Source: Candidatus Parcubacteria bacterium
Lineage (GTDB): Bacteria > Patescibacteriota > Minisyncoccia > Minisyncoccales > JAGMDC01
Assembly: GCA_023131895.1 (NCBI GenBank)
Contig: JAGLYZ010000002.1
Coordinates: 43,364-107,363, forward strand
Direction of reading: 5' to 3'
DNA length: 64,000 bases
Both the position numbers and the translations under genes were made by a program. Every line of letters begins with the position of its first letter. Position 1 is the first letter of the stretch. Of this stretch, positions 1,944-47,345 are shown in pieces. The notes beneath the pieces were generated by a model, which saw only the letters and a program-made list of their open reading frames with translations, searched no databases and was not told the origin of the DNA.

Positions 1944-3323
1944 CTATACAATAGCTATCTGTGGATAACTTAATTTATATATATCCCCTGCTCCCATTAT
2001 GATTAGAATTTCTTTATTCTTTAGATTTTGTTTCAAATAATTCTCTGCTTTTTTAATAGATGAGACATACTTGACTTTTTCTCCATATGGATATTTTTTC
2101 AAGTTTTTATTAATTTTTTTAACTAATTTCTCCGAATCTACTTTACTTTTAATCGCCTTGTCTTCTCTGCCGGCAACATCATAAATGTCGGTAATAATCA
2201 ATCTATCAATCCAGCCTTTATTCAATGCCTCTTTAAAAACCTTAACAAAATCATCAAACAAATAATAAGTTCGCTGATATTGATGCGGCTGAAAAACACA
2301 CCAAATTTTCTGTTTGGAAAACTTTTCCCTGCATGCTTTTAAAGTTGCTTTTACTTCTGTTGGATGATGAGCGTAATCAGATATAATTGTTATTTTCTGC
2401 GTAATTCCGCGTTTAGTTCTGTGTAACTCCGCGTGCGTGAGCTCAAAACGGCGCCATGTTCCTTTAAATTCTGACAATGCTTGATAGCTAACTTTATCTG
2501 CAATTTTTAAAGCTCTAGCTATGGTCAAAGCAGCTAAAGCATTATAAATATTATACTCCCCTGGAATTTTCAGAATTTTTCTTAATTTCTCCTTTTCTTT
2601 TTTTTGATTTAATGAAAATACACAGGTCTGACCTGTGTATTTTTTGACTTGGGATGTCAAGATTTGAGCAATATTCTTATCATCTTTGTTAATTACTAAT
2701 ACTCCATTTTTTGGCAAATGTGATATAAACTCGTCAAAAGCTTTTAAGATATTCTTTAAGTTTTTATAATAATCCAAATGCTCCTTTTCAATATTGGTAA
2801 TAACAATAATCTTAGGCCAATAATTTAAAAATGATTCTTCATGTTCGCAGGCCTCAATAATTAAGTATTTGCTTTTGCCCATTCGAAAATTTGAATTCCC
2901 AAATTCTTTTAATTTTGTTCCAACAATTACTGTCGGGTCAAACCCGGCTTTTATTAAAACCAAAGCAGCCATTGCTGTGGTTGTGCTTTTGCCATGGGTT
3001 CCAGTTATGGCAATGGTAGAATACTTTTTTGTTAATTCTCCTAATGCCTCTGGATAAGACAAACATTTAATGCCCAGATTTTTCGCTTCTTTTAATTCTG
3101 GATTATCTTCTTTTACTGCCGGACTATAAATAATTAAATCATGATTTTTGGTTATATTTTTTGCGTATTGACCTATGATAATTTTAATCCCTTTTCTTTT
3201 CAGTAATTTAGTAATTTCAGAAGATGCTAAATCAGAGCCAGAAACTTGCTCGCCTTTTGCTAAACAATATTGAGCTAAAGCAGAAACGCCAATTCCGCCA
3301 ATTCCGATAAAATGAATTTTCAT
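1944..3323 (-). CDS. murC: UDP-N-acetylmuramate--L-alanine ligase
   Basis: N-terminal GIGGIGVSALA dinucleotide-fold motif and Mur ligase P-loop GTHGKSTTT. The 459-aa length is typical of MurC. Confidence 0.9.
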   Translation of the reverse strand: MKIHFIGIGGIGVSALAQYCLAKGEQVSGSDLASSEITKLLKRKGIKIIIGQYAKNITKNHDLIIYSPAVKEDNPELKEAKNLGIKCLSYPEALGELTKKYSTIAITGTHGKSTTTAMAALVLIKAGFDPTVIVGTKLKEFGNSNFRMGKSKYLIIEACEHEESFLNYWPKIIVITNIEKEHLDYYKNLKNILKAFDEFISHLPKNGVLVINKDDKNIAQILTSQVKKYTGQTCVFSLNQKKEKEKLRKILKIPGEYNIYNALAALTIARALKIADKVSYQALSEFKGTWRRFELTHAELHRTKRGITQKITIISDYAHHPTEVKATLKACREKFSKQKIWCVFQPHQYQRTYYLFDDFVKVFKEALNKGWIDRLIITDIYDVAGREDKAIKSKVDSEKLVKKINKNLKKYPYGEKVKYVSSIKKAENYLKQNLKNKEILIIMGAGDIYKLSYPQIAIV

Positions 3324-3919
3324 TTTAATGATATTGATTCTAATATAGTATATTTAGGACCTGCGCGTTTTAATTCGCTTTCCATTACTTCAATTGAATT
3401 TACTAGAAAGTTTAAAGAAATTTCCTCATCTATCTCCGGTCTTTCTTCTGGTTCCATTTTTCTCCATTCCCAAGCTTTAATTCTACCTAAAGTAATATGC
3501 GGCTTGAATTCCCTGTTTTCTGAAATAAAATTTATTCCAGTATGAATTAAAGATTTTTCCAAATCCTGTTTTAGATTAGCTAATTCTTCTACTTTTTGTC
3601 CTTCTGCCCAGACCATTCTTGGGGGTATTTTTTTAGGAGGGGCGTAGCAAATTCTATCCAAATTTATTGAAAAAGATGAATTTCCTGAAACTGCTTCTTT
3701 TGTAATTTTACAAATTTCTAACAGTTCTTCATCGCGGATAGAACCAATAAAAACTAAAGTAATATGAAGATTATCCGGCTTTACCGATTTAATAGGTAAA
3801 TCTGGCCATTTTTCTTGATAAACTGAAAGTTTCCTTTTAATATCTTCAGGCAGATTTATAGCAATAAAAATTCTTTTCCTCATTAATTTTAGCATAGCAG
3901 AATATTGACTTTTTCTCAA
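3320..3919 (-). CDS. thpR: RNA 2',3'-cyclic phosphodiesterase / 2'-5' RNA ligase family (2H phosphoesterase)
   Basis: Two HxT motifs, LHITLVF and PHITLGR. The true start is probably an internal Met (MRKRIFIAINLP, about 3883). Confidence 0.8.
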   Translation of the reverse strand: MRKSQYSAMLKLMRKRIFIAINLPEDIKRKLSVYQEKWPDLPIKSVKPDNLHITLVFIGSIRDEELLEICKITKEAVSGNSSFSINLDRICYAPPKKIPPRMVWAEGQKVEELANLKQDLEKSLIHTGINFISENREFKPHITLGRIKAWEWRKMEPEERPEIDEEISLNFLVNSIEVMESELKRAGPKYTILESISLK

Positions 3920-3960
3920 GAAACTGATTAGATTGATTAACAGTTATTTAAAAACTTGAA

Positions 3961-4893
3961 ATGGGAAAAATGAAAGAAAAAGAAGATAAAGAAGAAAATG
4001 ATTGTCCATTAAAAGCTGAACAAATAAAAAAATGTCCTGAGTGCGGTTCTAAGGGTCTGGTACGGAATTATGATAAAGCAGAAATTTTTTGCGAGGATTG
4101 CGGGTTAGTAATAACAGAAAATATCGTTGACCTTGGTCCTGAGTGGCGTGCTTTTGATTTAGAACAGAAGTCCAAACGGGAGAGGACTGGCGCGCCAATG
4201 ACTTACAGAATTTATGATAAAGGATTGAGTACGAGTACATCTGTAAATAAAATACCGGGACTCTATCGCCCGAGAGACTGGCAAATTCACGTTGCGAATA
4301 CAACCGAAAGGAGTTTCATCTTCGCCCTAACTGAGATTGAGCGGATGGCATCTGCGCTTAGACTGCCGGTGAATATCAGGGAGACAACGTCTATGTTATA
4401 CCGCAAAGCGATGAAGAAGCGGCTAATCCGTGGGCGTAGCATAGAAGCAATAACTTCTGCTCTCCTATATATTAGCTGCAGACAGTATAGTGTGCCGCGA
4501 ACATTGGATGAGATTACAGAAATATCAAAAGTCGGGCAGAAAGAGATAAGCCGGGCATATCGCTTCCTTTTACGAGAACTGGACTTGAAAGTTTCGCCTG
4601 CCTCTCCTGCTGATTTTGTGCCGCGTTTCTGTTCCTTGCTTGATTTGGGAGACGATATAAGATCAAAAGCAGTAGAGATAATCAAAAAAGCAGAAGAAGT
4701 GGAACTAACCAATGGAAGAGGACCTATAGGAATAGCAGGAGCTGCTATTTATATCGCTGCGATGATAAGTGGTAAGCATCGTACACAAAAAGAGTTATCG
4801 AATGTTACGGGTGTGACCGAGGTCACAATAAGAAATAGATACAAAGAAATGTCAAAAGAATTAGCGATAGAGGAAATAGATACATTCCTGTGA
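3961..4893 (+). CDS. tfb: transcription initiation factor IIB / archaeal TFB homolog, full length
   Basis: N-terminal Zn ribbon CPEC-x15-CEDC and a B-reader/linker-like DLGPEWRAF. Two cyclin-fold repeats follow ([17 protein letters not shown]...[17 protein letters not shown] and ...[35 protein letters not shown]). The C-terminus is [12 protein letters not shown]. Confidence 0.85.
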
Positions 4894-4918
4894 CAATATT
4901 CTGGACAAAAGTAAGAAT

Positions 4919-4944
4919 AGGGATTAATTTCCCTTATTTTTTTT
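4919..4944 (+). terminator. weak hairpin plus T8 run downstream of tfb
   Basis: aggga-ttaatt-tccct followed by tatttttttt. Confidence 0.45.
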
Positions 4945-5016
4945 GACGAAGCTATTCTTTTGTTGTAATATGTAAATATAGTCCTTTTCTAAAAAGGCGG
5001 AAAAGAGGTAAAAAAA

Positions 5017-5622
5017 ATGGTAGACTTTGAAAAGAGAAAAGAAATAGTAGAAAGATTGAGATTCTACGAGGAAGGTATAGTATATTTAATGGATCGTCCC
5101 CAGTACTATCGATTTATAAGATATAAACTAAGAAACGCATTATCTACAAGAAAAGAAGAATTAGAGAAAACAATAAAGAAATTTAACATAAGCAAACACC
5201 GCGAAGAAACTTTGATTGAATTATTGGAAGAATTGGTAGATTTGGCGATGATAGAAAAAATTGACCTGATTATTGGCAACAACAAAAACATAGAAAGAAA
5301 AGTGAAAAAAATACTGAATACCACTATTTCTTATATAAGAAATATGAAAGGCGTCAGGATAAATCTGAAAAATGAATTCGGAATAAATGTAGATGACTAT
5401 TTTGAAAAGTTTTTCAGGAACTGCCAAAATACTTTTGAGATGATTAGTATAAAACCAAAAATAGAAGTTTTGACAGAGAGAATAGAAAACGAGAAATTAT
5501 TACCAGAAATCGACAAAGACGAGGTTTTAAATCAAATCGCGAAAATAGAGACAAAAAGTCAACTCGAAAAATTCCGGAGAATAATGGAAGAAAGAATGGG
5601 GATAATAGTAAAGGTCTTTTAA
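5017..5622 (+). CDS. hypothetical helical protein, no recognisable motif
   Basis: 201-aa ORF with an AAGAGG RBS-like element upstream and a hairpin terminator downstream. Confidence 0.6.
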   Translation: MVDFEKRKEIVERLRFYEEGIVYLMDRPQYYRFIRYKLRNALSTRKEELEKTIKKFNISKHREETLIELLEELVDLAMIEKIDLIIGNNKNIERKVKKILNTTISYIRNMKGVRINLKNEFGINVDDYFEKFFRNCQNTFEMISIKPKIEVLTERIENEKLLPEIDKDEVLNQIAKIETKSQLEKFRRIMEERMGIIVKVF

Positions 5623-5628
5623 AAATTC

Positions 5629-5655
5629 GGTTCGCTTATGCGAGCCTCTTTTTAT
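5629..5655 (+). terminator. rho-independent terminator
   Basis: ggttcgc-ttat-gcgagcc stem-loop followed by tctttttattt. Confidence 0.65.
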
Positions 5656-5685
5656 TTATCTAAAAAGTGATAAAATTAAAATATA

Positions 5686-6753
5686 ATGAAAGAAGCAATA
5701 TTATACAAAAAACTTGCGGACAAAAGAGTTTACCCTGTTAAATCCCCGACAAGTCGTGGTGCGAAGCAATTTAACAGGGTGAAATGCCAGAATTGCGCTC
5801 ATTATTGTGTTATTGAAGAAGGAAAGCGAGGGATTTGCGGTGTCCGAGAAAATATTAATGGAAAACTTTATGCCCTGAATTATGGCAAAGCAATTGCCTG
5901 TAATATTGACCCTATTGAGAAAAAACCTTTATTTCATTTTTTACCAGGCACTCAATCACTATCTATAGCTACGGTAGGATGTAATTTTAGATGTGCTAAT
6001 TGCCAAAATTGGGATATATCCCAAGGTCCAAAACCAAACAAACCAATTTTAGGAGAAGATTTGTCGCCAAGAGAAATTGTTAAAATCGCCAAAGAGAATA
6101 ACTTGCCCTCTATTGCTTATACATATACCTCCCCCACTATTTTTTCTGAATATGCCTTAAATACAATGAAATTGGCCAAAGAACAAGGAATAAAAAATAT
6201 ATGGATAAGCAATGGATTTTGGTCAAAAGAATTATTCGAAATGATTTCTCCTTTTTTAGATGCTGCCAATATTGATTTGAAGGGTTTTTCTGACGATTTT
6301 TATATTAAATACTGCGGCGGCCGTGTTCAGCCAGTTTTAGATACCTTAGAACGCATAAAAAAGAAAAAAATCTGGCTGGAAGTGACTACTTTAGTAATTC
6401 CTAGTTTAACTGATTCTAAAGAAATGTTTGAAAATATTGCTAATTTTATCAAAAACGAATTAGACGCTGAAACGCCCTGGCATATTTCTCAATTTTCCGG
6501 AGCAATTTCCTGGAAATTGCAGCACTTGCCTGATACACCGGTTAAAACATTAAAAATGGCTTATGAAATTGGTAAAAGGGCTGGGTTGAAGTATGTTTAT
6601 ACTGGCAATGTACCGGGATTAGAAAGCGAAAACACTTATTGCCCAAAATGCGGAACTTTGGCAATTGAGCGGCTCGGCTATGCCATAAAACGTTTTGACA
6701 AAAATGGAAAATGCTCAAAATGTAGAGGAGAATTAGATTTAATTTTAAATTAA
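5686..6753 (+). CDS. AmmeMemoRadiSam system radical SAM enzyme
   Basis: CNFRCANCQNW radical SAM CxxxCxxC cluster, plus N- and C-terminal Cys pairs (CQNCAHYC, CPKCG...CSKC). It sits beside the LigB/Memo-like and AMMECR1 genes. Confidence 0.8.
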   Translation: MKEAILYKKLADKRVYPVKSPTSRGAKQFNRVKCQNCAHYCVIEEGKRGICGVRENINGKLYALNYGKAIACNIDPIEKKPLFHFLPGTQSLSIATVGCNFRCANCQNWDISQGPKPNKPILGEDLSPREIVKIAKENNLPSIAYTYTSPTIFSEYALNTMKLAKEQGIKNIWISNGFWSKELFEMISPFLDAANIDLKGFSDDFYIKYCGGRVQPVLDTLERIKKKKIWLEVTTLVIPSLTDSKEMFENIANFIKNELDAETPWHISQFSGAISWKLQHLPDTPVKTLKMAYEIGKRAGLKYVYTGNVPGLESENTYCPKCGTLAIERLGYAIKRFDKNGKCSKCRGELDLILN

Positions 6754-6768
6754 AATTTAGAAATTTTT

Positions 6769-7380
6769 ATGATTACCTTTGCCTGCTTTTCTCCTCATCC
6801 TCCCCTACTTTTGCCAGAAGTTGGCTCATCAGAGGATAGAGAAAAAGTTAAAAAAACAATTGAAAATTTGAAGTTTTTAGGAAAGAAATTAAAGGAATCT
6901 AATCCTAGTACTATTATTATTTCCTCTCCCCATCCTGATTGGGGTTTTAATGTTCCTCTTCATTTTTTAAACCCTAAACAAAATATTCCAAGCAGGCAAT
7001 TATTTATTCCTGACAAAACTCCTGATTTTTATTATCAACAAGGAAAAGAGTTTTATAATAAACTAGAAAAAGAAAAAAAATATGCCCTGATCGCCTCTGG
7101 TGATATGTCTCATTGCTTAAAAAAGGACGGCCCTTATGGCTTGAATCCTGACGGACCTAAATTTGATAAAGCATTGATTGAATATTTAAAGAATAAAGCT
7201 CTTGAAAACTTTTTAAAGCTAGACGAAATGTATCCAGAGGCCGGCGAATGCGGTCTTCGCTCTTTTTCTTTTATTTTAGGAATTTTAGATGCCTCAGGGC
7301 AAGCTTGGCAGCCGGAAATTCTTTCTTATGAATACCCATTCGGCGTCGGCTATCTTGTTGTAAATTTCAAATTGGGTTAA
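6769..7380 (+). CDS. class III extradiol dioxygenase subunit B-like / Memo-superfamily protein
   Basis: SPHPPLL N-terminus, SSPHP and GDMSHCL motifs typical of the LigB/Memo fold, and synteny with the radical SAM and AMMECR1 genes. Confidence 0.6.
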   Translation: MITFACFSPHPPLLLPEVGSSEDREKVKKTIENLKFLGKKLKESNPSTIIISSPHPDWGFNVPLHFLNPKQNIPSRQLFIPDKTPDFYYQQGKEFYNKLEKEKKYALIASGDMSHCLKKDGPYGLNPDGPKFDKALIEYLKNKALENFLKLDEMYPEAGECGLRSFSFILGILDASGQAWQPEILSYEYPFGVGYLVVNFKLG

Positions 7381-7386
7381 TTTTGT

Positions 7387-7415
7387 TTGACAAAGATAAC
7401 AAAAATTGCTATCCT
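7387..7415 (+). promoter_or_regulatory. sigma70-like promoter (TTGACA-17-TATCCT)
   Basis: TTGACA at 7387-7392, a 17-nt spacer, and TATCCT at 7410-7415. Confidence 0.45.
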
Positions 7416-7420
7416 TATAT

Positions 7421-7541
7421 CGCTCGATGGTGTAAGCGCACGCTGCCCAACCAGGTAGAGGCCGGAGGATTATTCCTCCTTCGGGCATCGTATATCTTTT
7501 TATAGCTGTTTTACAAAATATTTAGGAGGTGAAATAAAAAA
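7421..7541 (+). promoter_or_regulatory. GC-rich structured 5' leader with an SD/anti-SD arrangement
   Basis: Hairpin GGAGGA(7464-69)-ttat-TCCTCC(7474-79). The true SD AGGAGGTGA lies at about 7523-7531. GC is locally much higher than in the flanks. Confidence 0.4.
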
Positions 7542-7745
7542 ATGGACATGGATAGAGAATATTGGACAATGGGTTTGGTAGTTGGAATGATACTTTTAAT
7601 AATAGGAGTAATCGGAACAATCTTTTTAGATGATAAAGCAGGAATTTACCCCTATCTTTGTATAGCAGCTACGGCAGTTATGATTGTTCCTTCTATTATT
7701 CATTTATTTGTGTATCACCAATATCACCAAAACGAAATCTTATGA
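7542..7745 (+). CDS. small two-TM membrane protein (67 aa)
   Basis: Strong SD, two hydrophobic segments, and its own promoter and terminator. Confidence 0.6.
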   Translation: MDMDREYWTMGLVVGMILLIIGVIGTIFLDDKAGIYPYLCIAATAVMIVPSIIHLFVYHQYHQNEIL

Positions 7746-7768
7746 GGAGACATCACTCCTCTTTTTTA
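7744..7768 (+). terminator. rho-independent terminator
   Basis: gaggag-acatca-ctcctc followed by ttttttatt. Confidence 0.7.
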
Positions 7769-7832
7769 TTTACTAAAATCATTGTAGAATAAAACCAGAG
7801 GCAAGAATTTATAGGCATTTAATACACTTTTT

Positions 7833-8399
7833 ATGAACCAATATAGTTTACTTGCCAAAAATGCGGTGGAAATATATATTAAAGAAGCAAGGATTATTTC
7901 TGCTCCTGAAAATCTGATTAAAGAGTTTTTCACAAAAAAAGCTGGAGTTTTTGTTACTATTGAGGAAAAAGATGAATTGCGAGGATGTATTGGCACTTAT
8001 TTGCCAACTAAAAACAATATTGCTAAAGAAGTGATTCACAATGCCATTGCCGCTGCAACTGAGGATTATCGCTTCTCCCCTATCCAGAAAGAAGAACTTT
8101 CAGAGCTTTCTTATACTGTATATGTTTTAAACAAGCCAGAACCAATCAAGAGCATAAATGAATTAGATCCGAAAAAATACGGCATCCTTGTAAAATCGCA
8201 GTCCTTTTCTTCTGGCTCTGATGTTATCTTTGAACCTGCGCCAAGAGCTCATTATAAATCAGGATTACTTTTACCAGGATTAGACGGCGTGGATACTTCA
8301 GAAAAACAAATTTCTATTGCCTGCCAAAAAGGAAACATAAATCCAGAAACAGAAAAAATAATAATTTACAAATTTACAGTAGATAAATTTGAGCAATAG
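7833..8399 (+). CDS. AMMECR1 domain protein (AmmeMemoRadiSam system protein A)
   Basis: GVFVTIEEKDELRGCIGT motif typical of AMMECR1; 188 aa. Confidence 0.8.
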   Translation: MNQYSLLAKNAVEIYIKEARIISAPENLIKEFFTKKAGVFVTIEEKDELRGCIGTYLPTKNNIAKEVIHNAIAAATEDYRFSPIQKEELSELSYTVYVLNKPEPIKSINELDPKKYGILVKSQSFSSGSDVIFEPAPRAHYKSGLLLPGLDGVDTSEKQISIACQKGNINPETEKIIIYKFTVDKFEQ

Positions 8400-9076: not shown

Positions 9077-9649
9077 ATGCTTGATTTTAAAGAATTAGAC
9101 AAAGGGATAACAATTATTATAGATAAGCAGCCGTATGAAATTTTAGAGGCCTCCCGCCTATTTAAAGGAAGAGGCCATTCTGTTCTGCAGGTAAAAATAA
9201 AAAATCTAATTACTGGAGCTGTTGTTTCAAAAACATTTCATCCTTCCGATAGCTTTGAAGAAGCAGAGATTAAAAAATTTAAAGCAAAATTTTTGTATTT
9301 TCATCGTAGCCAATTTTTCTTTTCAAAAGCAAATGATCCTTCATTTAGGTTTTCTCTGCTGGAAAAAAATATTGGAGCAAGCAGTAAATTTTTAAAACAA
9401 AATTTAATAGTTGATGCCATATTGTTTCAAGATAAAGTTATTAATATCTCTTTGCCGATAAAACTGAATTTAAAAGTAATTGAGGCGCCGCCAGGAGTCC
9501 AAGGCAACCGCTCACAACCAGGATTAAAAAATGTTGTCTTAGAAACCAAAGCAAGAATAAATACTCCTTTATTTATCAAAGAAAACGATATAATAGAAAT
9601 AAACACTGAAACAAGTGAATATGTCCGTAGGATACAGTCCACAGATTGA
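9077..9649 (+). CDS. efp: elongation factor P
   Basis: 190-aa EF-P-like sequence with three OB/KOW-like segments. The tip loop reads FKGRGHS, with Arg at the usual modified-Lys position. Confidence 0.85.
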   Translation: MLDFKELDKGITIIIDKQPYEILEASRLFKGRGHSVLQVKIKNLITGAVVSKTFHPSDSFEEAEIKKFKAKFLYFHRSQFFFSKANDPSFRFSLLEKNIGASSKFLKQNLIVDAILFQDKVINISLPIKLNLKVIEAPPGVQGNRSQPGLKNVVLETKARINTPLFIKENDIIEINTETSEYVRRIQSTD

Positions 9650-11585: not shown

Positions 11586-12605
11586 TTATCCGAAATAATG
11601 AAAATATAACCAGATTATTAAAAACAATAAAATTGTGCGAAAAACAAATAACAGTTTTAAGGTTATACGATGTCTATCTGCTTTGAATATAGCATACCAG
11701 TTCATAGCATTTACGAAAAGCAAAGACCGGCAACAAAATTTCAAGGTTTCCCATCTGCTAAATTTTCTGGATTGCTCTACCCAATTATATTTAAGTTTTA
11801 TAGCTTCTTTTGCAAAATTAAAATTCAATAATTTTTGATAATCAAAATTTAATACTAAATCAATTTCCATGGTTCCTAAGAGACTATGCTTATATCTAAC
11901 TTTTCTCTTTATTTCTTTTTTTATTTTTTCTGTAGCTTTTTTTATGCCCCCTCCAATTGGTTTATCTAAAAAGAACAAAACAGATTCTATAGAATAAATA
12001 GCTGCTTTATCAGCCATTTTCAAACAAATTTTTGGAACAAACAAAGCTCCTAAAACAGAAGAAAGAGCGATATAGTATGGTATTAAAATGGCTTTGAATT
12101 TCTCCCACCAGTTTGCTTTAGCCCGAATTGTTTTTCTTATATCCCTTCCCCATAAAATCCTGCCCTCGTATTTCATTTTCTTAAAGAGCATAGATTGGGA
12201 AGCCACTAGTATTGCTCCCAATAATAAATCCTTTCTCTTTATTTTGCCTTCTACCCAATCTATGTCTGTTGGTCCGAAAACTTCATAGGGCACATAAAGT
12301 TTGGTCTTGGCTAAAACCTTTTTAACTTCATCTTTTTTATCACCAACAGAGCAGGATTCTTTGAGTTTTGTATCATATTTCTCATCTAATCTCCAAAATA
12401 TCTTGTCTGTATATTCTTTTACCTCTTTCACTAATTCCGGCCTTTTAACCTGAATTATCAAATCTACATCGCTTATTCCTCTTTTCCATTCCCCTCTTGC
12501 CGCACTGCCAAACAGCAAAATAAAATCCAAATCTTCCTTAAATCTCTCTGCTAATTTTTTAGAAAATTCCTGTAAAAACCTTTGAATTCTTTGTTGCTCT
12601 TCCAT
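11586..12605 (-). CDS. nucleotidyltransferase-domain protein with a hydrophobic C-terminus
   Basis: Minimal NTase signature LFGSAARGEW...SDVDLII. The C-terminal about 40 aa are strongly hydrophobic. Confidence 0.6.
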   Translation of the reverse strand: MEEQQRIQRFLQEFSKKLAERFKEDLDFILLFGSAARGEWKRGISDVDLIIQVKRPELVKEVKEYTDKIFWRLDEKYDTKLKESCSVGDKKDEVKKVLAKTKLYVPYEVFGPTDIDWVEGKIKRKDLLLGAILVASQSMLFKKMKYEGRILWGRDIRKTIRAKANWWEKFKAILIPYYIALSSVLGALFVPKICLKMADKAAIYSIESVLFFLDKPIGGGIKKATEKIKKEIKRKVRYKHSLLGTMEIDLVLNFDYQKLLNFNFAKEAIKLKYNWVEQSRKFSRWETLKFCCRSLLFVNAMNWYAIFKADRHRITLKLLFVFRTILLFLIIWLYFHYFG

Positions 12606-12607
12606 AA

Positions 12608-13459
12608 TTATACTTCAAATAAAATTTTAGCTTCTTTTATTAAAGAATTTAAGTTTTTTTCCGAAATTCCTGTTTGCTTTGAGAATTTCCGAGGATTAAT
12701 TTTTAGAACATCTTTTGCTAAAATCACCTTTCTTTTAATAAAAACCTCAGCCAAGCCTTCCTTTAAAGAAGGCAAAATAGTTATAGGATAAAAACCGTTT
12801 TTATCAATTATATATTCCAGACCTCCTGATTTAGGGCATTTCCAGCCCAGAAGCTCAATCCCTGCGCATCTTGAATATTCAGCCGCTGCTTTGGTAAATT
12901 TAGCATTAGTAACCAAAATAGGCCTTACATTAAAGCCATTAAGCTCTTTTCTTTCAAATACATTTCCTTTTCTTATATCTAAAGTCTTAGCCCGATAAGC
13001 CAAAGCGGTTTCTGAATGAATACGTCCTTCTTCTAATAAAGATCTAAACTTACACTCGCCGACATAAACCAGATTTCCTTTTTTGGCCAAAAAATCGATT
13101 TCATATTTCAAGCAATCGCCCTGAAGATATTGATTTAATCTAACCTTATATCCTTGTCTGAAGAAAATTTCTCCAATAAATTTCTCAAAGGGAAAACCGC
13201 TGGGCCCCAATTTTTTCATTCCTTCTTTCAAAGAAAATTTTATTCCTAATTTAAGAGACTCTCGATTTAAAAGTTCTTTTATTCTTTTAAAAATCTCTGA
13301 TGTTTTGATGCCAGGATAGGCTTCCATTTGAATAACTTGGCTAATCTCTCGGGCCAATTTCTTTGAAGCGCCCGCTTTCCTGGCGCTCCGATAAACTTTC
13401 CTTAAAGAAAACGGCTTTCTTTCCCCTCTGAAATTAATTACATAAATAGATTTTTCCAT
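12608..13459 (-). CDS. ATP-cone domain fused to a Mrr/restriction-endonuclease-like (PD-(D/E)xK) domain
   Basis: N-terminal ATP-cone-like YVINFRGERKPFSLRKVYRSARKAG. The nuclease core is EIDFLAKKGNLVYVGECKF. Confidence 0.6.
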   Translation of the reverse strand: MEKSIYVINFRGERKPFSLRKVYRSARKAGASKKLAREISQVIQMEAYPGIKTSEIFKRIKELLNRESLKLGIKFSLKEGMKKLGPSGFPFEKFIGEIFFRQGYKVRLNQYLQGDCLKYEIDFLAKKGNLVYVGECKFRSLLEEGRIHSETALAYRAKTLDIRKGNVFERKELNGFNVRPILVTNAKFTKAAAEYSRCAGIELLGWKCPKSGGLEYIIDKNGFYPITILPSLKEGLAEVFIKRKVILAKDVLKINPRKFSKQTGISEKNLNSLIKEAKILFEV

Positions 13460-15453: not shown

Positions 15454-15906
15454 CTATCCGATGTCAATCACCTTGTATTTTTTCTTGCCTTGAGGAGCAT
15501 CAACTTCAATAATATCTCCTTTCTTTTTACCTAAAAGAGCTCCACCTAAAGGAGAATTAAATGAGATTTTACCTTTTAAAATATCTACTTCTTCTGTCTC
15601 GACAATCTGGAATTTTTCTTTTCTTCCTTCTAATTTTAAAGAAACAAAAGAACCTATTTGGCTTCTACCATTTTCTTTCTTTTCTATCACTTTAGCTTGG
15701 GCAATAATTTCTCTTAACTCTTTTATTTTTCCCTCAACAAATCCCTGTTTTTCTTTAGCTATATGATATCCAGCATTTTCTTTCAAATCGCCCTGAGAAG
15801 AAGTATGTTTTAGATCCTCTGAAACCTCTTTTCTTATAACTTTCTCTAGGTACTCCAGCTCTTTTTTTATTTTCTTCAAACCTTCCTGTGTTAAATATTT
15901 TGTCAT
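15454..15906 (-). CDS. greA: transcription elongation factor GreA
   Basis: GDLKENAGYHIAKEKQ motif in the coiled-coil N-domain plus a C-terminal FKBP-like domain. Confidence 0.9.
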   Translation of the reverse strand: MTKYLTQEGLKKIKKELEYLEKVIRKEVSEDLKHTSSQGDLKENAGYHIAKEKQGFVEGKIKELREIIAQAKVIEKKENGRSQIGSFVSLKLEGRKEKFQIVETEEVDILKGKISFNSPLGGALLGKKKGDIIEVDAPQGKKKYKVIDIG

Positions 15907-36599: not shown

Positions 36600-37994
36600 A
36601 TGCCGGAAAACAATTCATTAAATAAAGAACTGCCTGAAAAACTTCCGCCTCAAAATATAGAAGCAGAAAAATCCCTGCTCGGCTCTTTGATGATTGATAA
36701 AAACGCTATCGTTAAAGTCGTTGACTTTTTACAGTCAAAAGATTTCTATCAAGGCATACACCAGCAGATTTACGAGACAATGGCAGAACTATTTGAAAAA
36801 AAAGAGCCAGTTGATTTGCTTTCTGTCTCCAACCGGCTTAAAGAAAAAGAGCAATTGGAAGCAATCGGAGGAAACAGTTATCTAACTGAATTAATAAACT
36901 CTGTGCCTAATGCGCTTCATGTTCTTAACTATGCTAAAATCGCCCAAAGAAAAAGAATTTTAAGGGATTTAATAAGCGCTTCTTATGAAATCGGTTTAAT
37001 GGGCTATAATGAAACAGACGATGTAGATGTTTTATTGGATAACGCGGAAAAAAGAATTTTTAGCATTGCCCAAAAATCACTTTCTCAAAAATTTGTTCCG
37101 GTAAAAGACACATTGGAAGAGGCATTTGAGCGCCTTGACGCTTTATCAAAGCAGAAAGAAGGCATAAGAGGAGTGCCAACTGGTTTTATTGATTTAGACA
37201 ATAAGTTATCCGGCCTTCAAAAATCTGATCTTATTATTTTAGCTTCCCGGCCATCTTTGGGGAAAAGCAGTTTAGCGCTTGACATCGCGCGTAATGCAGC
37301 TATTCACCATAAAATTGCAGTTGGAATATTCAGTTTAGAAATGTCAAAAGACCAGGTAGTAGACAGGATTATTGCCAGTACGGCTAATGTTGATTTATGG
37401 CGTTTTAGAACAGGCCGTTTGTCAAGCGAAGGAGAAAACAATGATTTTTCCAAAATCCAGCAGTCATTGGGCATATTGTCTGAAGCGCCAATTTATATTG
37501 ATGATGCCGCCACTTCTAATATTCTTCAAATGAGAGCAATGGCGCGCCGTTTGCAAGCAGATAAAGGATTGGGTTTGGTTATTGTTGATTATCTCCAGCT
37601 CATGGAGCCAAGAACTGCCAGCGCCAATATTGTTCAGCAAATGACTGAAATTTCCCGTTCCTTAAAAGGACTTGCTCGAGAGCTTAATGTTCCAGTTTTA
37701 GCTCTTTCGCAATTATCAAGAGCAGTAGAACAGCGCTCTCCGCAGATTCCGCGTTTATCAGACTTGCGTGACACAGGAGCTCTTGAACAGGATGCTGATG
37801 TGGTTTTGTTTATCCATCGGGAAGATAAATACAGGCCTGATACAGCGCGCAAAAATATCGCTGATATTATTATAGCCAAGCACCGTAATGGCCCGCCTGG
37901 AAAAGTGGAATTATATTTTAACGAACAAAAAGTCAGTTTTAGGAGTTTAGAAAAAACTGAAAAAGAAGAATTCGGCGAATCAGAGTATGAATAA
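36600..37994 (+). CDS. dnaB: replicative DNA helicase DnaB
   Basis: PQNIEAEKSLLGSLM N-terminus, Walker A SRPSLGKSSLALDIA, IVDYLQLM, and SQLSRAVEQR. Confidence 0.92.
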   Translation: MPENNSLNKELPEKLPPQNIEAEKSLLGSLMIDKNAIVKVVDFLQSKDFYQGIHQQIYETMAELFEKKEPVDLLSVSNRLKEKEQLEAIGGNSYLTELINSVPNALHVLNYAKIAQRKRILRDLISASYEIGLMGYNETDDVDVLLDNAEKRIFSIAQKSLSQKFVPVKDTLEEAFERLDALSKQKEGIRGVPTGFIDLDNKLSGLQKSDLIILASRPSLGKSSLALDIARNAAIHHKIAVGIFSLEMSKDQVVDRIIASTANVDLWRFRTGRLSSEGENNDFSKIQQSLGILSEAPIYIDDAATSNILQMRAMARRLQADKGLGLVIVDYLQLMEPRTASANIVQQMTEISRSLKGLARELNVPVLALSQLSRAVEQRSPQIPRLSDLRDTGALEQDADVVLFIHREDKYRPDTARKNIADIIIAKHRNGPPGKVELYFNEQKVSFRSLEKTEKEEFGESEYE

Positions 37995-38619
37995 TTATCC
38001 TCCTTCAATCCAAAAACTTATTGATATATTTTCCAGTTTTCCTACTGTTGGCCCGCGAACTGCGGCTCGTTTTGTTTTTTATCTAATGCGGCTACCGGAA
38101 GAAAAGATAAAAGAAATCTTAGATTCTGTTTCCAATTTAAAAAAGACCATAAAAATTTGCTCTTTTTGTTTTAGTCCTTTTCAAGCAGCAGACACTGAAG
38201 AAACTCTTTGCCCGATTTGCCAAAATAAGACCCGGAATAGAAATCTGCTTTGCATTATTGAAAAAGAAACTGATTTAGTTGCTCTTGAAAAAACTAAAAA
38301 ATACAATGGGCTTTATTTTATATTAGGCGGAACTGTTTCTAAACTAAAAGAAGATGAGATTAGAAAGCTAAGAGCTGAAGCATTAATAGAAAGAATAAAA
38401 AATCCAGAAAAATTTGGAATTTCTGGAGCTGATTTTCAAGAAATCATTATTGCTTTTAATCCTACTGCTGAAAGCGAAGCTACTGCTTTATATTTAAAAC
38501 GGCTCTTAAAGCCGCTTGGCAAGAAGATAACGCAGCTGGGCCGTGGCTTACCCATAGGCGGTGAATTAGAATACGCTGACCAAGAAACCCTGTCATCTGC
38601 ACTTGAAAGCAGAAGATAA
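37987..38619 (+). CDS. recR: recombination protein RecR
   Basis: HhH N-terminus (PTVGPRTAARF), a C4 zinc finger (CSFC...CPIC), and a Toprim region (CIIEKETDLVALE). Confidence 0.9.
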   Translation: MNNYPPSIQKLIDIFSSFPTVGPRTAARFVFYLMRLPEEKIKEILDSVSNLKKTIKICSFCFSPFQAADTEETLCPICQNKTRNRNLLCIIEKETDLVALEKTKKYNGLYFILGGTVSKLKEDEIRKLRAEALIERIKNPEKFGISGADFQEIIIAFNPTAESEATALYLKRLLKPLGKKITQLGRGLPIGGELEYADQETLSSALESRR

Positions 38620-38746: not shown

Positions 38747-39064
38747 TTATTCTGTTTCAATTTTTAGGATTTCAACCTCTGTAAATAGCTGGCGATGGCC
38801 GGTTTTTTTTCTATATCTTTTCTTTGCCTTGTATTTAAAAATAATTACTTTTTTTTCTTTGCCCTGCTTTAAAACTTTTCCAATAACTTTAGCTCCCTTC
38901 ACTAAAGGAGTTCCAATTTCCAGTTTTTTATTCTTTTCTAAAAGCAAAACTTCGGAAAATTTTATCTCTTTTTCCTCTTTTGCGTCAAGTTTCTCTATTT
39001 TTAATTTAGTTCCTGGCTCAACAATATACTGTTTTCCGCCAGTTTTAATTACGGCCAGTGTCAT
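38747..39064 (-). CDS. rplU: 50S ribosomal protein L21
   Basis: MTLAVIKTGGKQYIV is the canonical L21 N-terminus. The longer track ORF (to 39109) is an upstream extension. Confidence 0.9.
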   Translation of the reverse strand: MTLAVIKTGGKQYIVEPGTKLKIEKLDAKEEKEIKFSEVLLLEKNKKLEIGTPLVKGAKVIGKVLKQGKEKKVIIFKYKAKKRYRKKTGHRQLFTEVEILKIETE

Positions 39065-39116
39065 ATTAGCATATAAACATTTAAACATATTAACATAACT
39101 CAAAATCAAAAAATTT

Positions 39117-40240: not shown

Positions 40241-40462
40241 CTATTCTTTTATTCCTTTAACTGCTTCTTCTTTTTCTGTGTCAAGCAAAATGATATCCTT
40301 TAAAGTTTTCAAAAGACCAATCCTTTCTTTTTCATCTAAATAAGGCAATCTATCTAAAAATTCCTTTCTTTGTTCTTCTGTTATTAATGGAGTTTCTTTA
40401 ATAAGGCCTTTCAAAGATTTATTTGTGAGAAGAATATTAGTCATAAGTTTATATTTCTCCAA
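40241..40462 (-). CDS. hypothetical 73-aa protein, last gene of the T4CP-like operon
   Basis: Overlaps the upstream ORF by 14 nt. No motif recognised. Confidence 0.5.
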   Translation of the reverse strand: MEKYKLMTNILLTNKSLKGLIKETPLITEEQRKEFLDRLPYLDEKERIGLLKTLKDIILLDTEKEEAVKGIKE

Positions 40463-42158
40463 AAATAATTGCTAAAATCCAATCTATTAGACCATACTTT
40501 TTTTCTGAGAATTCTTTATAAACTTCTTTCTGCTCGTCTGTAAGTTTTTCTGGCTCAATCCCCCAACTTTCAAGAGTTTCTCTCAAACCTTCCTCATCTT
40601 CTTCCCATTCTCCTTCTAATTCTTCATCTTTTTTTATTAATTTAGTAAATTCTTTTTTTATATTTTCTTTCCCTTCTTTGCCTTTTCCAAATTCTTTTTC
40701 TATTTTCGCTTTTCTTTTAGAATCTTTGTCAATTTCTTTTGATAATTCTCGTGCCGCTACATCTCTTCCCATTTTTTCATAACATTTCTCTATTATTTCA
40801 TCTGTGGTTTTTTCCACTTCCTCTTTAAGAATATCATTCTTTTTTTCTTCAAATTTTATATTCCATTCCTCTCCCAATTCCTCTTTTTTGGTATTAATTT
40901 CTCCATTTTTTATTTCATTACCTATTTCAATAATTTTTTCAAATCTTGTCATTTTTATCTTCCCACCTATTTGCTTCCCTGTTATATTAACTTTATCCTC
41001 ACCAAAAGGATTAATTTTTCTTGCTTTTTTTATTTTTCCAATCTCCTCTGGAGAAATTTCCTGTTTTAGAAAAGCAAGAACATCACTTTCTTCTATTTCC
41101 TTCAATCCTTTCAAATTCTTATTTAAAGTTTCCTGCAGATAATCTACTCTTGACTTAGCATAATCATCAATACTTCCCGCTGCTTTTTGCTTCACAGGCG
41201 ATAATCTGTCCCATTCCTCCTGAAAAAATTTATTTATTTCTTCAATTTTAAAAGTTTCTATTCCTTTTTCTACATAATCATTTTTTTCTCCTATACCTGC
41301 TTCAGTTTTTGTTTTCTTATCTAAATTTTCTCCAACAAGCTTTTCCCAAACTTTTTCTTTAATTGGACCCTCGGGAAGACGTTTGAAAATTGCTGTTTTT
41401 ATATCCGGAGGGAGATCTTCTCCAAAATATTCTATTTCTTCTCTTAAATTTTCAGCGTATTTCCATTCTTTATTCTCTTTATCAAGTAAACCCCAAAATT
41501 CATTCTTATCCCTGACACAATCCATTACTCTGCTTTCATCAAACTCATCTATGTCTTGCCCTGCCAATTCCGAATAATCATCTGGGTAATTTTCTATTTG
41601 CTCTTTTAACCATTCTTTACCTTGACTAACTAAAATATCTTTCATTTGCTCCTCAAGAATGCCTTGAATACTTTTAATAGTATCTTTATCTACGCTAAAT
41701 CTTTCTTTGTCGTAAAATCTTCTATAAATTTCACTTTTTCTATCCTCTGTTTTCTTTCTTTTTTCCTCTTCCAATTTTTCTCCCAATTCAGGAGATTTTT
41801 TCTTCTTTTTTCTCTCTACTTTTTCTTCCTTTTCCTTTTTTTCTTTTTCTTCTTCTCCTTTTCCCGCTTCTTTTTTTCTCGCTTCCAGTATTTTTTCAAT
41901 CTCTTCCTTTGACATACTATCTTTATCTATTTCTTTATCCGCTATTTTTTCTCCTTTTTCTTGTTTTCCCACATTTTTTTTGTTATTATTTTCATCTTTT
42001 AGTTCCGACCTTTTTATTTTTTCTTTTGTTTCGTTTGTAAAATCATCCTCTTTCACTTCCTCCTCTTCTTCAACTGAAAAATTCCAGCCCGTCTCTTTGC
42101 CCGTTTCTTTCATCTCTTTGAGAATTTTTTTTCCTAATCCTCTTTCTCTTTTTCTCAT
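40449..42158 (-). CDS. E/K-rich low-complexity protein (569 aa) with a C-terminal hydrophobic tail
   Basis: The translation is dominated by Glu/Lys repeats and ends with LIDWILAIIFGEI. Confidence 0.6.
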   Translation of the reverse strand: MRKRERGLGKKILKEMKETGKETGWNFSVEEEEEVKEDDFTNETKEKIKRSELKDENNNKKNVGKQEKGEKIADKEIDKDSMSKEEIEKILEARKKEAGKGEEEKEKKEKEEKVERKKKKKSPELGEKLEEEKRKKTEDRKSEIYRRFYDKERFSVDKDTIKSIQGILEEQMKDILVSQGKEWLKEQIENYPDDYSELAGQDIDEFDESRVMDCVRDKNEFWGLLDKENKEWKYAENLREEIEYFGEDLPPDIKTAIFKRLPEGPIKEKVWEKLVGENLDKKTKTEAGIGEKNDYVEKGIETFKIEEINKFFQEEWDRLSPVKQKAAGSIDDYAKSRVDYLQETLNKNLKGLKEIEESDVLAFLKQEISPEEIGKIKKARKINPFGEDKVNITGKQIGGKIKMTRFEKIIEIGNEIKNGEINTKKEELGEEWNIKFEEKKNDILKEEVEKTTDEIIEKCYEKMGRDVAARELSKEIDKDSKRKAKIEKEFGKGKEGKENIKKEFTKLIKKDEELEGEWEEDEEGLRETLESWGIEPEKLTDEQKEVYKEFSEKKYGLIDWILAIIFGEI

Positions 42159-42181
42159 GTTTTTTACCCTGTTAAATAATT

Positions 42182-44626: not shown

Positions 44627-44641
44627 TAGTATTTCACTGTT

Positions 44642-45364
44642 TTATTTTCTTCCAAACAATCTTTTTATTATTCCCAGCCTACCTTTCTCTTCCTCTTCTT
44701 TCTCTTTCCCTTCTGGTATTCCTGTTTCTTCTCCACTAATTTTTTCTTCATCTTTTTCTGACTCTGTCTTTTTCACAAGCTCTCCTCTTCGTTCTAATTC
44801 TTGTAATTCTTCCTTTAATTGATTATAATTTTCTTCCAATTTCTTCATTTCTTTTTCTCTTTCTTCTAAATCTATCAGAGGATTTTGCCATTTTTCTTCT
44901 GGTATTCTACGAATTCCACCTTTGTCAAATTCACCTTTTTCTATTCTTATTTTAAATCTTTCCGCATTCTCCTTCGCCATAGTTAACATCTTATATTTCT
45001 GGTCTATTTCTAAAATTACTCCTTCTAAGTTATTAAAAATCTCCTCGGCTTTTTCTGTTAACAATCCATTTCTTTGCAACTCTTTCCAATTTTCCATTTC
45101 TCGCATTTTTTCCATAGCTTCTTCTATTTTTTCTTTCTCTTCTTCTATTATTTCCCTTTCTTCTGGTGTTAATTCGTCTTTTAACTCTTTCCTTGTTTCT
45201 TTAATCTTTCTTTTGTCTTCGGCTTCAATCTCGGCTTCTTGTTCCTCAATTTCCTCTTCTGACACTTCTTCAATTTTTTCTTCTTTAACTGCCCCTTCTT
45301 CTTTCCTTTTTTCTGCTCTTGTTCTGCCCTCATATTCAATTTTAGGTTTTTCTTGTTTTGGCAT
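44642..45364 (-). CDS. E/K-rich coiled-coil protein (240 aa)
   Basis: Low-complexity charged translation, 15 nt upstream of the coupling ATPase. Confidence 0.55.
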   Translation of the reverse strand: MPKQEKPKIEYEGRTRAEKRKEEGAVKEEKIEEVSEEEIEEQEAEIEAEDKRKIKETRKELKDELTPEEREIIEEEKEKIEEAMEKMREMENWKELQRNGLLTEKAEEIFNNLEGVILEIDQKYKMLTMAKENAERFKIRIEKGEFDKGGIRRIPEEKWQNPLIDLEEREKEMKKLEENYNQLKEELQELERRGELVKKTESEKDEEKISGEETGIPEGKEKEEEEKGRLGIIKRLFGRK

Positions 45365-45417
45365 AAATTTAAATTTTGAATTTTTTTTATTAAACTCGAC
45401 CTTTTTATTTTTCTAAT

Positions 45418-45807
45418 TTATTTTTCTAAAAATTTCTTGAAACGGCCTTCTTCTGCTAAAGTGTCGTGGAATAAATCTAAAAGATATGGGTCGTTCATTT
45501 TCCGAACCACTTCTACCGCATAAGCCAAACCCTGGGTTTGAGCCAAATCTAAAAGATGCTGGATCTTCCCTTGAACCGTTCCTTTTTTTATATCATCGGC
45601 TTGCTTTTGGGCTTGGACTTTTGTTTGAGGAGATAACTTAACCTTTTCAATCTCTTTTTCTATTTCTTTCCTTGCTTCTTTTTCCTGCTCGGTTAATTCT
45701 TTCTTTTCTAAAATCTCCTCCCTTTCTTCTAGGGTTTCTTTGGGAAAAACCTCTTCTCTGTATTCCTTTCCCGGTGCCTTTTCAATTTTTTTATTTGTTT
45801 CTTCCAT
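45418..45807 (-). CDS. hypothetical 129-aa charged protein
   Basis: Starts 2 nt after the Fic stop. No motif recognised. Confidence 0.55.
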   Translation of the reverse strand: MEETNKKIEKAPGKEYREEVFPKETLEEREEILEKKELTEQEKEARKEIEKEIEKVKLSPQTKVQAQKQADDIKKGTVQGKIQHLLDLAQTQGLAYAVEVVRKMNDPYLLDLFHDTLAEEGRFKKFLEK

Positions 45808-45808
45808 A

Positions 45809-46648: not shown

Positions 46649-46651
46649 AGT

Positions 46652-47248
46652 CTATTTCTTTTCGCCTTGAAAATATTTTTCTTTCAAAAATTTACTAAAT
46701 TCTTGCATCTCTTTTTGGTAAACCAATATTCCCTCTTCTTGCTTGGCTTGAGGCAAATCCTCAACCACATCCGCTCCTTGATTAGTGATGGCAAAAGCCC
46801 CATAAATTCCCCGTGATTCTATATGAAGCCGAATATCAAAAGCAACTTCTCTATCTTTGTAAAACTCATCTAATAATTCAATCATTCTTGATTGGTGTTT
46901 TAGATTTTCTTTTTTCCATTCTTTTTGAACTGATTCACTCTCTTTTAAATTTTTTGGTTCAGGAGATTTAATCCAAACCCAAGGAGCCCTTGATTGATGT
47001 CCTTTTACCTCTATTTCTTCGGGGCGCTTGGCGGGATGTCCTTCACAAGATTGATATGTTGGAAATTCTAAAGCTTTTAGGGTAATTACAGTTTCTTTAA
47101 TCCCAGGATCAATAGGCCTTCCTTCGGCATCTGCTATTTTTTTAACTTCTTTCTCTATTTCTTTTAAGCGCTTTTCTTTTAAGGGTAACTTTAATTCTTG
47201 CGATTTCTCTTCGGCATTTTCAATTTTTGACTTGAATCTCTCTCGCAT
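46652..47248 (-). CDS. hypothetical 198-aa protein, first gene of the operon
   Basis: Ends 4 nt before the Fic start. No motif recognised. Confidence 0.55.
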   Translation of the reverse strand: MRERFKSKIENAEEKSQELKLPLKEKRLKEIEKEVKKIADAEGRPIDPGIKETVITLKALEFPTYQSCEGHPAKRPEEIEVKGHQSRAPWVWIKSPEPKNLKESESVQKEWKKENLKHQSRMIELLDEFYKDREVAFDIRLHIESRGIYGAFAITNQGADVVEDLPQAKQEEGILVYQKEMQEFSKFLKEKYFQGEKK

Positions 47249-47343: not shown

Positions 47344-47345
47344 AT

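Follow-up and report, generated by a model that had tools for sequence, protein, structure and literature searches.

Our analysis of a 64,000-nucleotide stretch of the genome of Candidatus Parcubacteria bacterium (assembly GCA_023131895.1, contig JAGLYZ010000002.1; the whole stretch is called the window below) revealed a complete gene for an archaeal-type transcription factor B (tfb, encoding TFB) within a bacterial gene neighbourhood of a member of the candidate phyla radiation (CPR). Sequence comparisons indicate capture from anaerobic methanotrophic archaea of group 1 (ANME-1, Methanophagales). We propose, at a probability of about 0.45, that the CPR TFB is a host-mimicking initiation factor acting on ANME-1 transcription. 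Among the components that define transcription in archaea and eukaryotes is TFB, which bacteria supposedly do not need; the CPR protein would work either on the polymerase of another domain or with a bacterial polymerase, and either would be new.

The tfb gene and its product

The gene and the domains of its product are located in the window as follows.

3961..4893, + strand: tfb, archaeal-type transcription factor B; complete open reading frame (ORF) of 310 aa, or 307 aa from the second ATG at 3970
4024..4116, + strand: Zn ribbon, residues 22-52, with C25, C28, C44 and C47 in the pattern C25-P-E-C28-x15-C44-E-D-C47
4117..4236, + strand: B-reader (residues 53-70) and B-linker (71-92), with DLGPEWRAF at 57-65
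4237..4296, + strand: short connector, residues 93-112, with the ANME-1-type deletion (comparison of connector lengths)
4297..4854, + strand: two cyclin-fold repeats, residues 113-208 and 209-298 (Pfam TFIIB, two matches), including the C-terminal helix-turn-helix

As a protein, the window TFB is by its sequence an ordinary member of its family, and it is the setting that stands out. The product, which gene callers begin at the second ATG, matches the NCBIfam model NF001658/PRK00423 (transcription initiation factor IIB) over residues 17-304 with 392.1 bits against a cut-off of 384, and the Pfam families Zn_Ribbon_TF (2.6e-17) and TFIIB (twice, 1.2e-46). Its top sequence match in PDB is human TFIIB (3.8e-54, residues 24-295), and the Pyrococcus TFB core (1D3U/1AIS) matches it at 5e-53 over residues 111-303. 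Every motif named in the first-pass annotation of this DNA, namely the Zn ribbon, DLGPEWRAF, the two cyclin repeats and the C-terminal helix, was found. The annotation had also considered a different cyclin-fold family without B-reader and ribbon; the profile check detected ribbon, B-reader and B-linker alike.

The four Zn-ribbon cysteines are invariant across all aligned CPR and archaeal TFB copies. The B-reader and B-linker, with the E-W-R motif, align without gaps to residues 47-80 of human TFIIB and to all archaeal TFBs, and the C-terminal recognition helix is intact (residues 285-296). By alignment to human TFIIB, G158/R159, K194, R205, V288 and R291 fall on known positions of contact with the TFB recognition element (BRE) and flanking DNA, and all of them are retained in the window TFB. 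The Pfam model Sigma70_r4 matches the helix-turn-helix below threshold (E 0.0055, 16.6 bits against a cut-off of 24.1) and sigma70 regions 2 and 3 were not found in the protein by Pfam, which does not place it in the sigma-70 family.

Donor, insertion site and age

The proteins nearest to the window TFB are ANME-1/Methanophagales TFBs (71-80% identity); those of Archaeoglobi, Methanosarcinales and Thermoplasmata are 55-59% identical to it. The connector after the B-linker comprises 23-29 aa in CPR and ANME-1 proteins versus 37 aa in 51 of 54 other archaeal TFBs, and a deletion of about 11 residues is common to ANME-1 and CPR. In none of 100 neighbour-joining (NJ) bootstraps did the ANME-1 sequences form a clade without the CPR copies. 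On these sequence data the donor lineage of the CPR tfb is ANME-1. Since the true ANME-1 gene lies in a conserved L21e-TrxR-like-RNase HII-TFB-NucS context, the donor gene was the principal (housekeeping) tfb and not a stray paralog. The archaea-to-CPR transfer postulated in the first-pass annotation is thus upheld by ANME-1 identity, the common indel and bacterial synteny.

Several routes of transfer were considered. A viral route found no support: IMG/VR gave just a 36-residue match to the ribbon, and the TFBs of archaeal viruses in GenBank are 25-30% identical. For a plasmid, every match was archaeal and at most 48% identical. Co-transfer with the adjacent AmmeMemoRadiSam operon is rejected, since TFB-less relatives have the operon beside thpR and the neighbours of tfb in ANME-1 are RNase HII and NucS.

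The window MurC, run against JGI metagenomes, gave 80 related CPR loci (MurC 42-69% identical), and TFB was present in none of these 80. The AmmeMemoRadiSam operon of the TFB-less relatives shows 59-72% identity, and in at least 8 of the 80 loci the site is empty, with 50-130 bp from thpR to the radical-SAM gene. The insertion point, as read from these alignments, is the short divergent intergenic region between thpR and the operon. On the MurC tree the six TFB-bearing loci that were included form one clade. Moreover, the derived characters V76T, R186T and a C-terminal +FL occur in 8-9 of 12 CPR copies versus 0 of 43 ANME-1 TFBs. These data fit one capture, by the ancestor of one cold-seep Parcubacteria/Minisyncoccales clade; the argument is drawn from synteny, the murC tree and the few shared characters, and not from the TFB tree, an NJ tree of only 297 sites with long branches and short internodes.

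The transfer had been annotated as possibly recent, which the data contradict. The GC content at third codon positions (GC3) is 0.29-0.36 in the CPR tfb copies, about 0.28 in the host genomes and 0.50-0.55 in ANME-1 tfb, so that the gene is largely ameliorated. Synonymous divergence (dS) between CPR copies ranges from 0.7 to more than 2, most pairs being near or beyond saturation, and identity of murC among the TFB-bearing lineages goes down to 71%. Because of this amelioration, the near-saturated dS and the spread over diverged lineages, the transfer is old. The richness in G/C-ending codons noted by eye is real, and the strings ggcgcgcc (about 4189) and gtgccgcga (about 4492) are there; it is, however, modest. 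The GC content of tfb is 0.417 versus a mean of 0.334, and its GC3 is 0.363 versus 0.277 (z 1.8, third of 53 genes); since bipA and a DEAD-box helicase gene surpass it in GC3, tfb lies inside the range of the genome. Much of the GC excess falls on codon position 2 and reflects amino-acid composition.

Recurrence in other CPR genomes

The same TFB protein with the same junctions was found on contigs of two samples and in an NCBI metagenome-assembled genome (MAG). TFB also occupies the same slot, between thpR and murC on the minus strand and the radical-SAM, Memo-like and AMMECR1 genes, in six more CPR contigs, which stem from different samples, assemblers and studies; with the window there are seven syntenic loci. 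The six are listed below.

L001: Nealsonbacteria CSMAG_2411, 135 kb
L002: labelled 'Saccharibacteria', 38.6 kb (TFB P0054)
L065: Minisyncoccales, 135 kb (TFB P0061)
L066: 165 kb (TFB P0021)
L068: 19.5 kb
L072: 7.9 kb (TFB P0065)

An eighth copy (P0075, locus L161) lies on a low-GC contig in a second bacterial context, between the peptidyl-tRNA hydrolase (pth) and LytR-CpsA-Psr genes; because of this different locus, tfb must have moved or spread among bacteria. A profile search with the CPR-type TFBs gave no extra bacterial copies. The TFB-bearing MAGs include GCA_030630045.1, the 330-kb Parcubacteria assembly 'KAT95', JAUWMZ01, GCA_049642725.1 and GCA_030643485.1.

The recurrence bears directly on the possibility of an artefact, that is, a chimeric assembly or an archaeal piece mis-binned in a bacterial MAG, which the first-pass annotation had raised. 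The GC content of tfb above that of the neighbouring genes would suit such an origin, as would a short related contig placed in a MAG labelled Methanophagales. However, the thpR-TFB junction repeats in seven independent assemblies, and because the same junctions appear across samples, assemblers and studies, on contigs of 14-165 kb, a chimera is rejected. The bacterial promoter signals ahead of tfb, its codon composition ameliorated towards the bacterial genome and the agreement of the flanking murC tree, on which the TFB loci form one clade, speak in the same direction, and we give an artefact practically no weight.

The contig in question (L160, JAGLVH010000349.1, 1424 bp, GC 0.38) carries a bacterial-type TFB (P0033) that has a C-terminal PFL and groups with the window protein. 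Possibly it is a piece of a CPR genome that ended up in the ANME-1 bin, in keeping with co-abundance.

Some copies differ in length. P0075 (L161 263-1498) and P0054 (L002 9992-11347) have C-terminal extensions of about 100-140 residues, that of P0075 containing a third TFIIB/cyclin-like repeat by Pfam. A fusion of the L002 TFB with the 201-aa protein encoded downstream of tfb in the window was ruled out as the source of its extension (hhalign probability 0.1%). The annotated N-terminal extensions of P0061 (L065 8001-9110) and P0065 (L072 1910-2962) start within the TTGACT...TAGAxT promoter described below; because they open inside this conserved element, they are probably start-codon miscalls and not genuine.

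The gene trees of the locus are not congruent. Window thpR and TFB are nearest to those of L066, from the same sediment sample (TFB dN 0.13, dS 0.67), and window murC is nearest to L001 and L065 and distant from L066 (dS 1.84). Because of this incongruence between murC and thpR/TFB, recombination between co-resident CPR lineages is suggested, with a breakpoint near the murC/thpR boundary.

Selection and conservation pattern

The tfb ORF is intact in all seven syntenic copies, and its dN/dS in CPR is 0.12-0.27, compared with 0.08-0.17 for murC and 0.20-0.39 for thpR of the same genomes. By these codon comparisons the gene is held under purifying selection along its whole length. For each region, the list below gives the percentage of positions conserved at 95% or more among 43 ANME-1 TFBs that the seven bacterial copies still have.

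Zn ribbon: 82%
B-reader: 91%
B-linker: 89%
Cyclin repeat 1: 87%
Cyclin repeat 2: 84%
Connector: 62%, the most diverged internal segment
C-tail: 37%

B-reader and B-linker are retained as well as, or better than, the cyclin core. The CPR majority residue equals that of ANME-1 at 244 of 277 positions, and a profile of the bacterial copies scores true ANME-1 TFBs as high as its own members. Mean identity is 0.72 between CPR copies and ANME-1, 0.64 among the CPR copies and 0.88 among ANME-1; the CPR copies are nearer to ANME-1 than to one another, which argues for independent drift. Clade-wide CPR substitutions are confined to about 4 of the 277 positions, with none in the Zn ribbon or B-reader. 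The divergence of the CPR TFBs thus has the appearance of lineage-specific drift about the ancestral optimum, with almost no common shift to a new partner.

In P0021 (L066), P0046, P0009 and P0053 the recognition helix (residues 285-293 of the window TFB) reads SV(A/S)TIG(A/V)R in place of TEVTIRNR. This change may alter promoter specificity.

A proposed action of TFB on the host

The following course of events would account for these observations. An ANME-1 housekeeping tfb was captured by a CPR ancestor and inserted between thpR and the AmmeMemoRadiSam operon; it gained, or landed behind, a bacterial sigma70-type promoter, and has since been inherited under purifying selection. The CPR cells probably live on ANME-1 as episymbionts or parasites. 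They would produce a protein that imitates the host TFB almost perfectly and move it into the host cell, where it would compete with or replace the host TFB on complexes of TATA-binding protein (TBP) with promoters. Initiation would be redirected, or transcription damped by competition, and the copies with altered BRE contacts hint at a changed promoter preference in the host.

In archaea and eukaryotes the function of Zn ribbon, B-reader and B-linker depends strictly on contact with the dock, clamp and cleft of RNA polymerase (RNAP), and the cyclin core acts on TBP-DNA. No genes for TBP, TFE or archaeal RNAP were found by Pfam in the window or around tfb in the seven related loci, and a tblastn search of about 1 Mb of loci with a Pyrococcus TBP probe gave no match; TBP and archaeal-type RNAP in the same organism, a trait of the TFB family, were accordingly not found in the window and related-locus flanks. 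Because the polymerase-facing segments are well kept and neither TBP nor archaeal RNAP was seen in the available DNA, the partner would, most simply, still be the ANME-1 RNAP and TBP. Archaeal viruses with their own TFB and phages with sigma factors presumably act on host transcription likewise. An effector aimed at an archaeal host had been offered as speculation in the first-pass annotation; among the readings considered it fits the conservation pattern best, as an inference. That bacteria should keep an archaeal general factor whose polymerase-facing modules are intact is difficult to account for unless it interacts across domains.

Several points weigh against this proposal. No recognisable secretion signal was found in TFB, the N-terminus being highly charged and not Sec-like, and no translocation system is linked to tfb, a VirD4-like ATPase gene lying 37 kb off. 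The absence of TBP and archaeal RNAP refers to the inspected parts of the genomes only, and the link between the clade and ANME-1 consists of co-occurrence in a sediment core, which is weak evidence. Four of the 12 copies (P0021, P0046, P0009 and P0053) have altered equivalents of V288 and R291. As regards a single origin, the CPR TFBs were monophyletic in 0 of 100 NJ bootstraps, and in 10 of 100 without P0054. Since sister lineages carry bacterial sigma factors in the same slot, the slot may house the bacterium's own initiation factors. Finally, the RNAP elements touched by B-reader and B-linker are structurally conserved across domains, and conservation of these segments is therefore not strict proof of an archaeal partner.

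The last two points lead to a role inside the CPR cell, where TFB could have been repurposed as a DNA-binding regulator, perhaps of the AmmeMemoRadiSam operon, or as a sigma-like factor on bacterial RNAP, whose dock, clamp coiled-coil and flap/wall are structurally equivalent to the archaeal elements bound by TFB. The gene has a conserved bacterial promoter and lies head-to-tail upstream of the operon, the protein has no evident secretion signal, and purifying selection is compatible with any function. Its helix-turn-helix resembles sigma region 4, and in P0054 the Sigma70_r4 match exceeds the cut-off (28.9 versus 24.1 bits). Divergent RpoD-like sigma70 genes (regions 2, 3 and 4) are present in the same slot and orientation in four related lineages (L083 216-1064; L086/L087 5287-6243; L104 5464-6321; L112 5240-6229). 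These sigmas are hypervariable, L083 and L104 being 46% identical in sigma and 90% in MurC, and the slot is empty in L085 and L117, close relatives of sigma-bearing loci. On the MurC tree, however, the nearest relatives of the TFB clade have an empty slot and the sigma-bearing lineages are scattered; as the TFB clade is not nested in them, replacement of a sigma factor by TFB in situ is not supported. Moreover, a new partner predicts clade-wide changes of contact surfaces, of which the approximately four substitutions, none in the Zn ribbon or B-reader, give little sign; a plain DNA-binding regulator needs no Zn ribbon, B-reader or B-linker, yet these are among the best kept parts; and TFB without TBP, of which none was seen, is known to bind promoters poorly. 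We consider such a role less probable than action on the host, and it is the strongest competitor.

Less probable still is another retained function, such as titration of an archaeal or viral factor by a decoy or sponge or binding of imported host DNA or RNA, or else the persistence of tfb as a slowly decaying passenger. Relative to murC of the same genomes, the gene evolves at about 0.7-2 times the rate, and it changes faster than its ANME-1 counterpart. Some copies show changes of BRE-contact residues or the additional third cyclin-like repeat, and the 201-aa partner ORF is dispensable, all of which would agree with such a role. Against this, the full-length ORF is intact in every copy despite dS of 0.7 to more than 2, with the low dN/dS given above; the Zn ligands and B-reader motif are invariant; a passenger would decay in such reduced genomes; and a decoy still entails contact with archaeal components.

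The proposal of a host-directed initiation factor can be taken further, to a CPR clade that parasitises ANME-1 and uses the stolen, host-compatible TFB as a cross-domain effector, injected or leaked to hijack or throttle the host RNAP. This extended form is somewhat less probable than the proposal itself. By analogy, the hypervariable slot sigmas might be an equivalent weapon against bacterial hosts; the unifying idea, that slot sigmas and TFB are both host-directed, at bacterial and archaeal hosts respectively, is more speculative. If true, this would be the first bacterium-to-archaeon transcription-hijacking effector, and the host of an uncultured CPR lineage would be readable from sequence.

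Comparison with known systems

Compared with the ANME-1 housekeeping TFB, to which it is 71-80% identical over its full length, the window protein has the same domain order, short connector, Zn ligands, B-reader, B-linker and BRE-helix residues. In contrast, its gene lies on a bacterial chromosome, follows a sigma70-type promoter and has bacterial codon composition; the CPR copies have their own tails (an N-terminal NCPLK motif and the C-terminal +FL) and evolve faster, and no TBP or archaeal RNAP was seen alongside them.

TFBs of archaeal viruses (Sulfolobales virus YNP1/YNP2, Halorubrum tailed viruses, Acidianus rod-shaped virus 3) share with the CPR protein a carrier that depends on an archaeal host, and presumably steer the host polymerase. 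Unlike the near-exact host mimic of the CPR, they are 25-30% identical to the window TFB and are expressed in the host from viral DNA, whereas the CPR carrier is cellular and the protein, not the gene, would have to cross. In phage sigma factors and bacterial effectors acting on host transcription the concept is the same, a parasite supplying an initiation factor or modulator, but these act within one domain or from bacterium to eukaryote. No bacterium-to-archaeon case, and none with a host-captured general transcription factor, was found reported in the literature.

Among known episymbioses, Ca. Nealsonbacteria and Ca. Yanofskybacteria on Methanothrix and Minisyncoccaceae on Methanospirillum (PMC10936435; bioRxiv 10.1101/2022.04.20.488981) involve the same bacterial class as the window clade and a Halobacteriota host. 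The window clade, however, was sampled at marine cold seeps, and an archaeal host is only inferred for it; those papers mention neither TFB nor an ANME host.

Ecological setting

Three of the TFB-bearing CPR genomes, that of the window among them, were recovered from reductive sediments at the Site-F cold seep in the South China Sea, sampled at 0-55 cm (RS_11/RS_12) and 265-300 cm (RS_19) (PMC9357000). Samples RS_17-19 from the same core also gave a true ANME-1 tfb contig (P0004); among them is SAMN18200507, from which the TFB-carrying CPR contig L069 was assembled as well. L001 is a MAG of the global cold-seep catalogue, which holds 38 ANME-1 genomes (PMC10491686). Parcubacteria, including Nealsonbacteria, live as episymbionts or parasites on methanogenic archaea, and host cells with attached bacteria are markedly low in ribosomal activity (PMC10936435). 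No paper combining Patescibacteria with TFIIB or Nealsonbacteria with ANME-1 was found; the Parcubacteria-methanogen and seep papers, as well as a 2026 review of the phylum, do not mention TFB or an ANME host. The presence of TFB in CPR bacteria, of which no published report was found, appears to be unreported.

With this gene, a cold-seep CPR lineage would for the first time have a concrete genomic indication of its host, and host-derived information-processing genes in episymbionts could offer a generalisable route to assigning hosts of CPR and DPANN. To our knowledge, ANME-1 archaea, which are key in the marine methane sink, have never been obtained in pure culture and have no known bacterial parasite. 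A parasite disturbing their transcription could alter methane oxidation rates.

Expression signals and the 201-aa ORF

The signals around tfb and the ORF that follows it are listed below; all are on the + strand.

3905..3934: sigma70-type promoter-like site upstream of tfb, TTGACT-18-TAGATT (consensus scan)
4919..4944: weak intrinsic-terminator-like hairpin (5-bp stem) with a T-run after tfb (scan)
4943..4971: second sigma70-like match before the 201-aa ORF, TTGACG-17-TAATAT (scan)
5017..5622: 201-aa ORF, with an AGAGGT Shine-Dalgarno sequence 8 nt before the ATG
5629..5656: terminator-like hairpin (7-bp stem, 5 GC pairs) with a T-run, at the end of the inserted cassette (scan)

In each of the seven CPR loci, tfb is preceded by a TTGACT -35 element and a TAGAxT-like -10 element 17-18 nt apart. 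An element that follows the -10 hexamer ahead of the start codon (3941-3955), CAGTTATTTAAAAAC, is conserved in L001, L066 and L068; it is TATA-box-like, yet unremarkable at a genome GC content of 33%. An archaeal promoter brought in with tfb was considered but is not claimed, as CAGTTATTTAAAAAC has no clear counterpart at the ANME-1 tfb genes, which have TTTATATA boxes.

The weak terminator after tfb, and the 201-aa gene with its own ribosome-binding site and terminator, are present as the first-pass annotation described; however, this gene is not an orphan, as a small, fast-evolving family adjoins TFB elsewhere. Its homologs lie next to TFB in L066, L068 and L072, where they are 24-30% identical and far more diverged than the flanking genes, and the ORF is also present on a 330-kb Parcubacteria contig; the family comprises 7 clusters in 5.8 billion proteins. 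The suggested synteny of tfb with this gene thus holds in these three loci and fails in L001, L002 and L065, from which the gene is absent, and because of this absence it is not needed for retention of TFB. The 201-aa protein matched no Pfam or NCBIfam family, and its AlphaFold2 model contains helices only, at low confidence (pLDDT 53). Given these results and its absence from three TFB loci, a TBP- or TFE-like partner was rejected as its identity.

Gene neighbourhood

The bacterial setting of tfb, annotated as lying between thpR/murC and an AmmeMemoRadiSam cluster, is confirmed by marker genes across all 64 kb.

1944-3323, - strand: murC (Pfam), bacterial marker
3320..3919, - strand: thpR, LigT-type 2',5' RNA ligase/phosphoesterase (Pfam LigT_PEase, 7.8e-24), left edge of the insertion slot
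5686..8399, + strand: AmmeMemoRadiSam-type operon (Pfam), right edge of the slot, ancestral in the CPR lineage
5686-6753, + strand: radical SAM gene (Pfam)
6769-7380, + strand: LigB/Memo-like gene (Pfam)
7833-8399, + strand: AMMECR1 gene (Pfam)
9077-9649: efp, bacterial marker
15454-15906: greA, bacterial marker
36600-37994: dnaB, bacterial marker
37987-38619: recR, bacterial marker
about 38747-39089: rplU, bacterial marker
56986-57417: mraZ, bacterial marker

Further bacterial genes in the window are xseAB, bipA, dnaX, cysS, mraW and those for an AddA-like helicase, PBP2 and a clpB-like protein. Two tRNA genes and no rRNA genes were found in the window.

A cluster at 40449-49014 contains genes for a VirD4/TraG/TraD-like type-IV coupling ATPase (42182-44626, - strand, 37 kb from tfb), an adjoining Fic/DOC protein (45809-46648, - strand) and an IS200-like Y1 transposase (48292-49014, - strand), along with several ORFs without a family, one of which encodes 569 aa (40449-42158) and lies in a stretch of extreme GC skew (about -0.5). 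The cluster is possibly a translocation module or an integrated element; a tie to delivery of TFB is purely hypothetical.

Between xseA and greA (11586-13459, - strand) there are genes for a nucleotidyltransferase (NTP_transf_2) and an Mrr-like nuclease with an AF1548-like C-terminal domain, and a small PF1765-like gene; the same observation takes in locus L073, 18453-18674. The NTP_transf_2, Mrr/AF1548-like and PF1765-like families are frequent in archaea and in defence islands.

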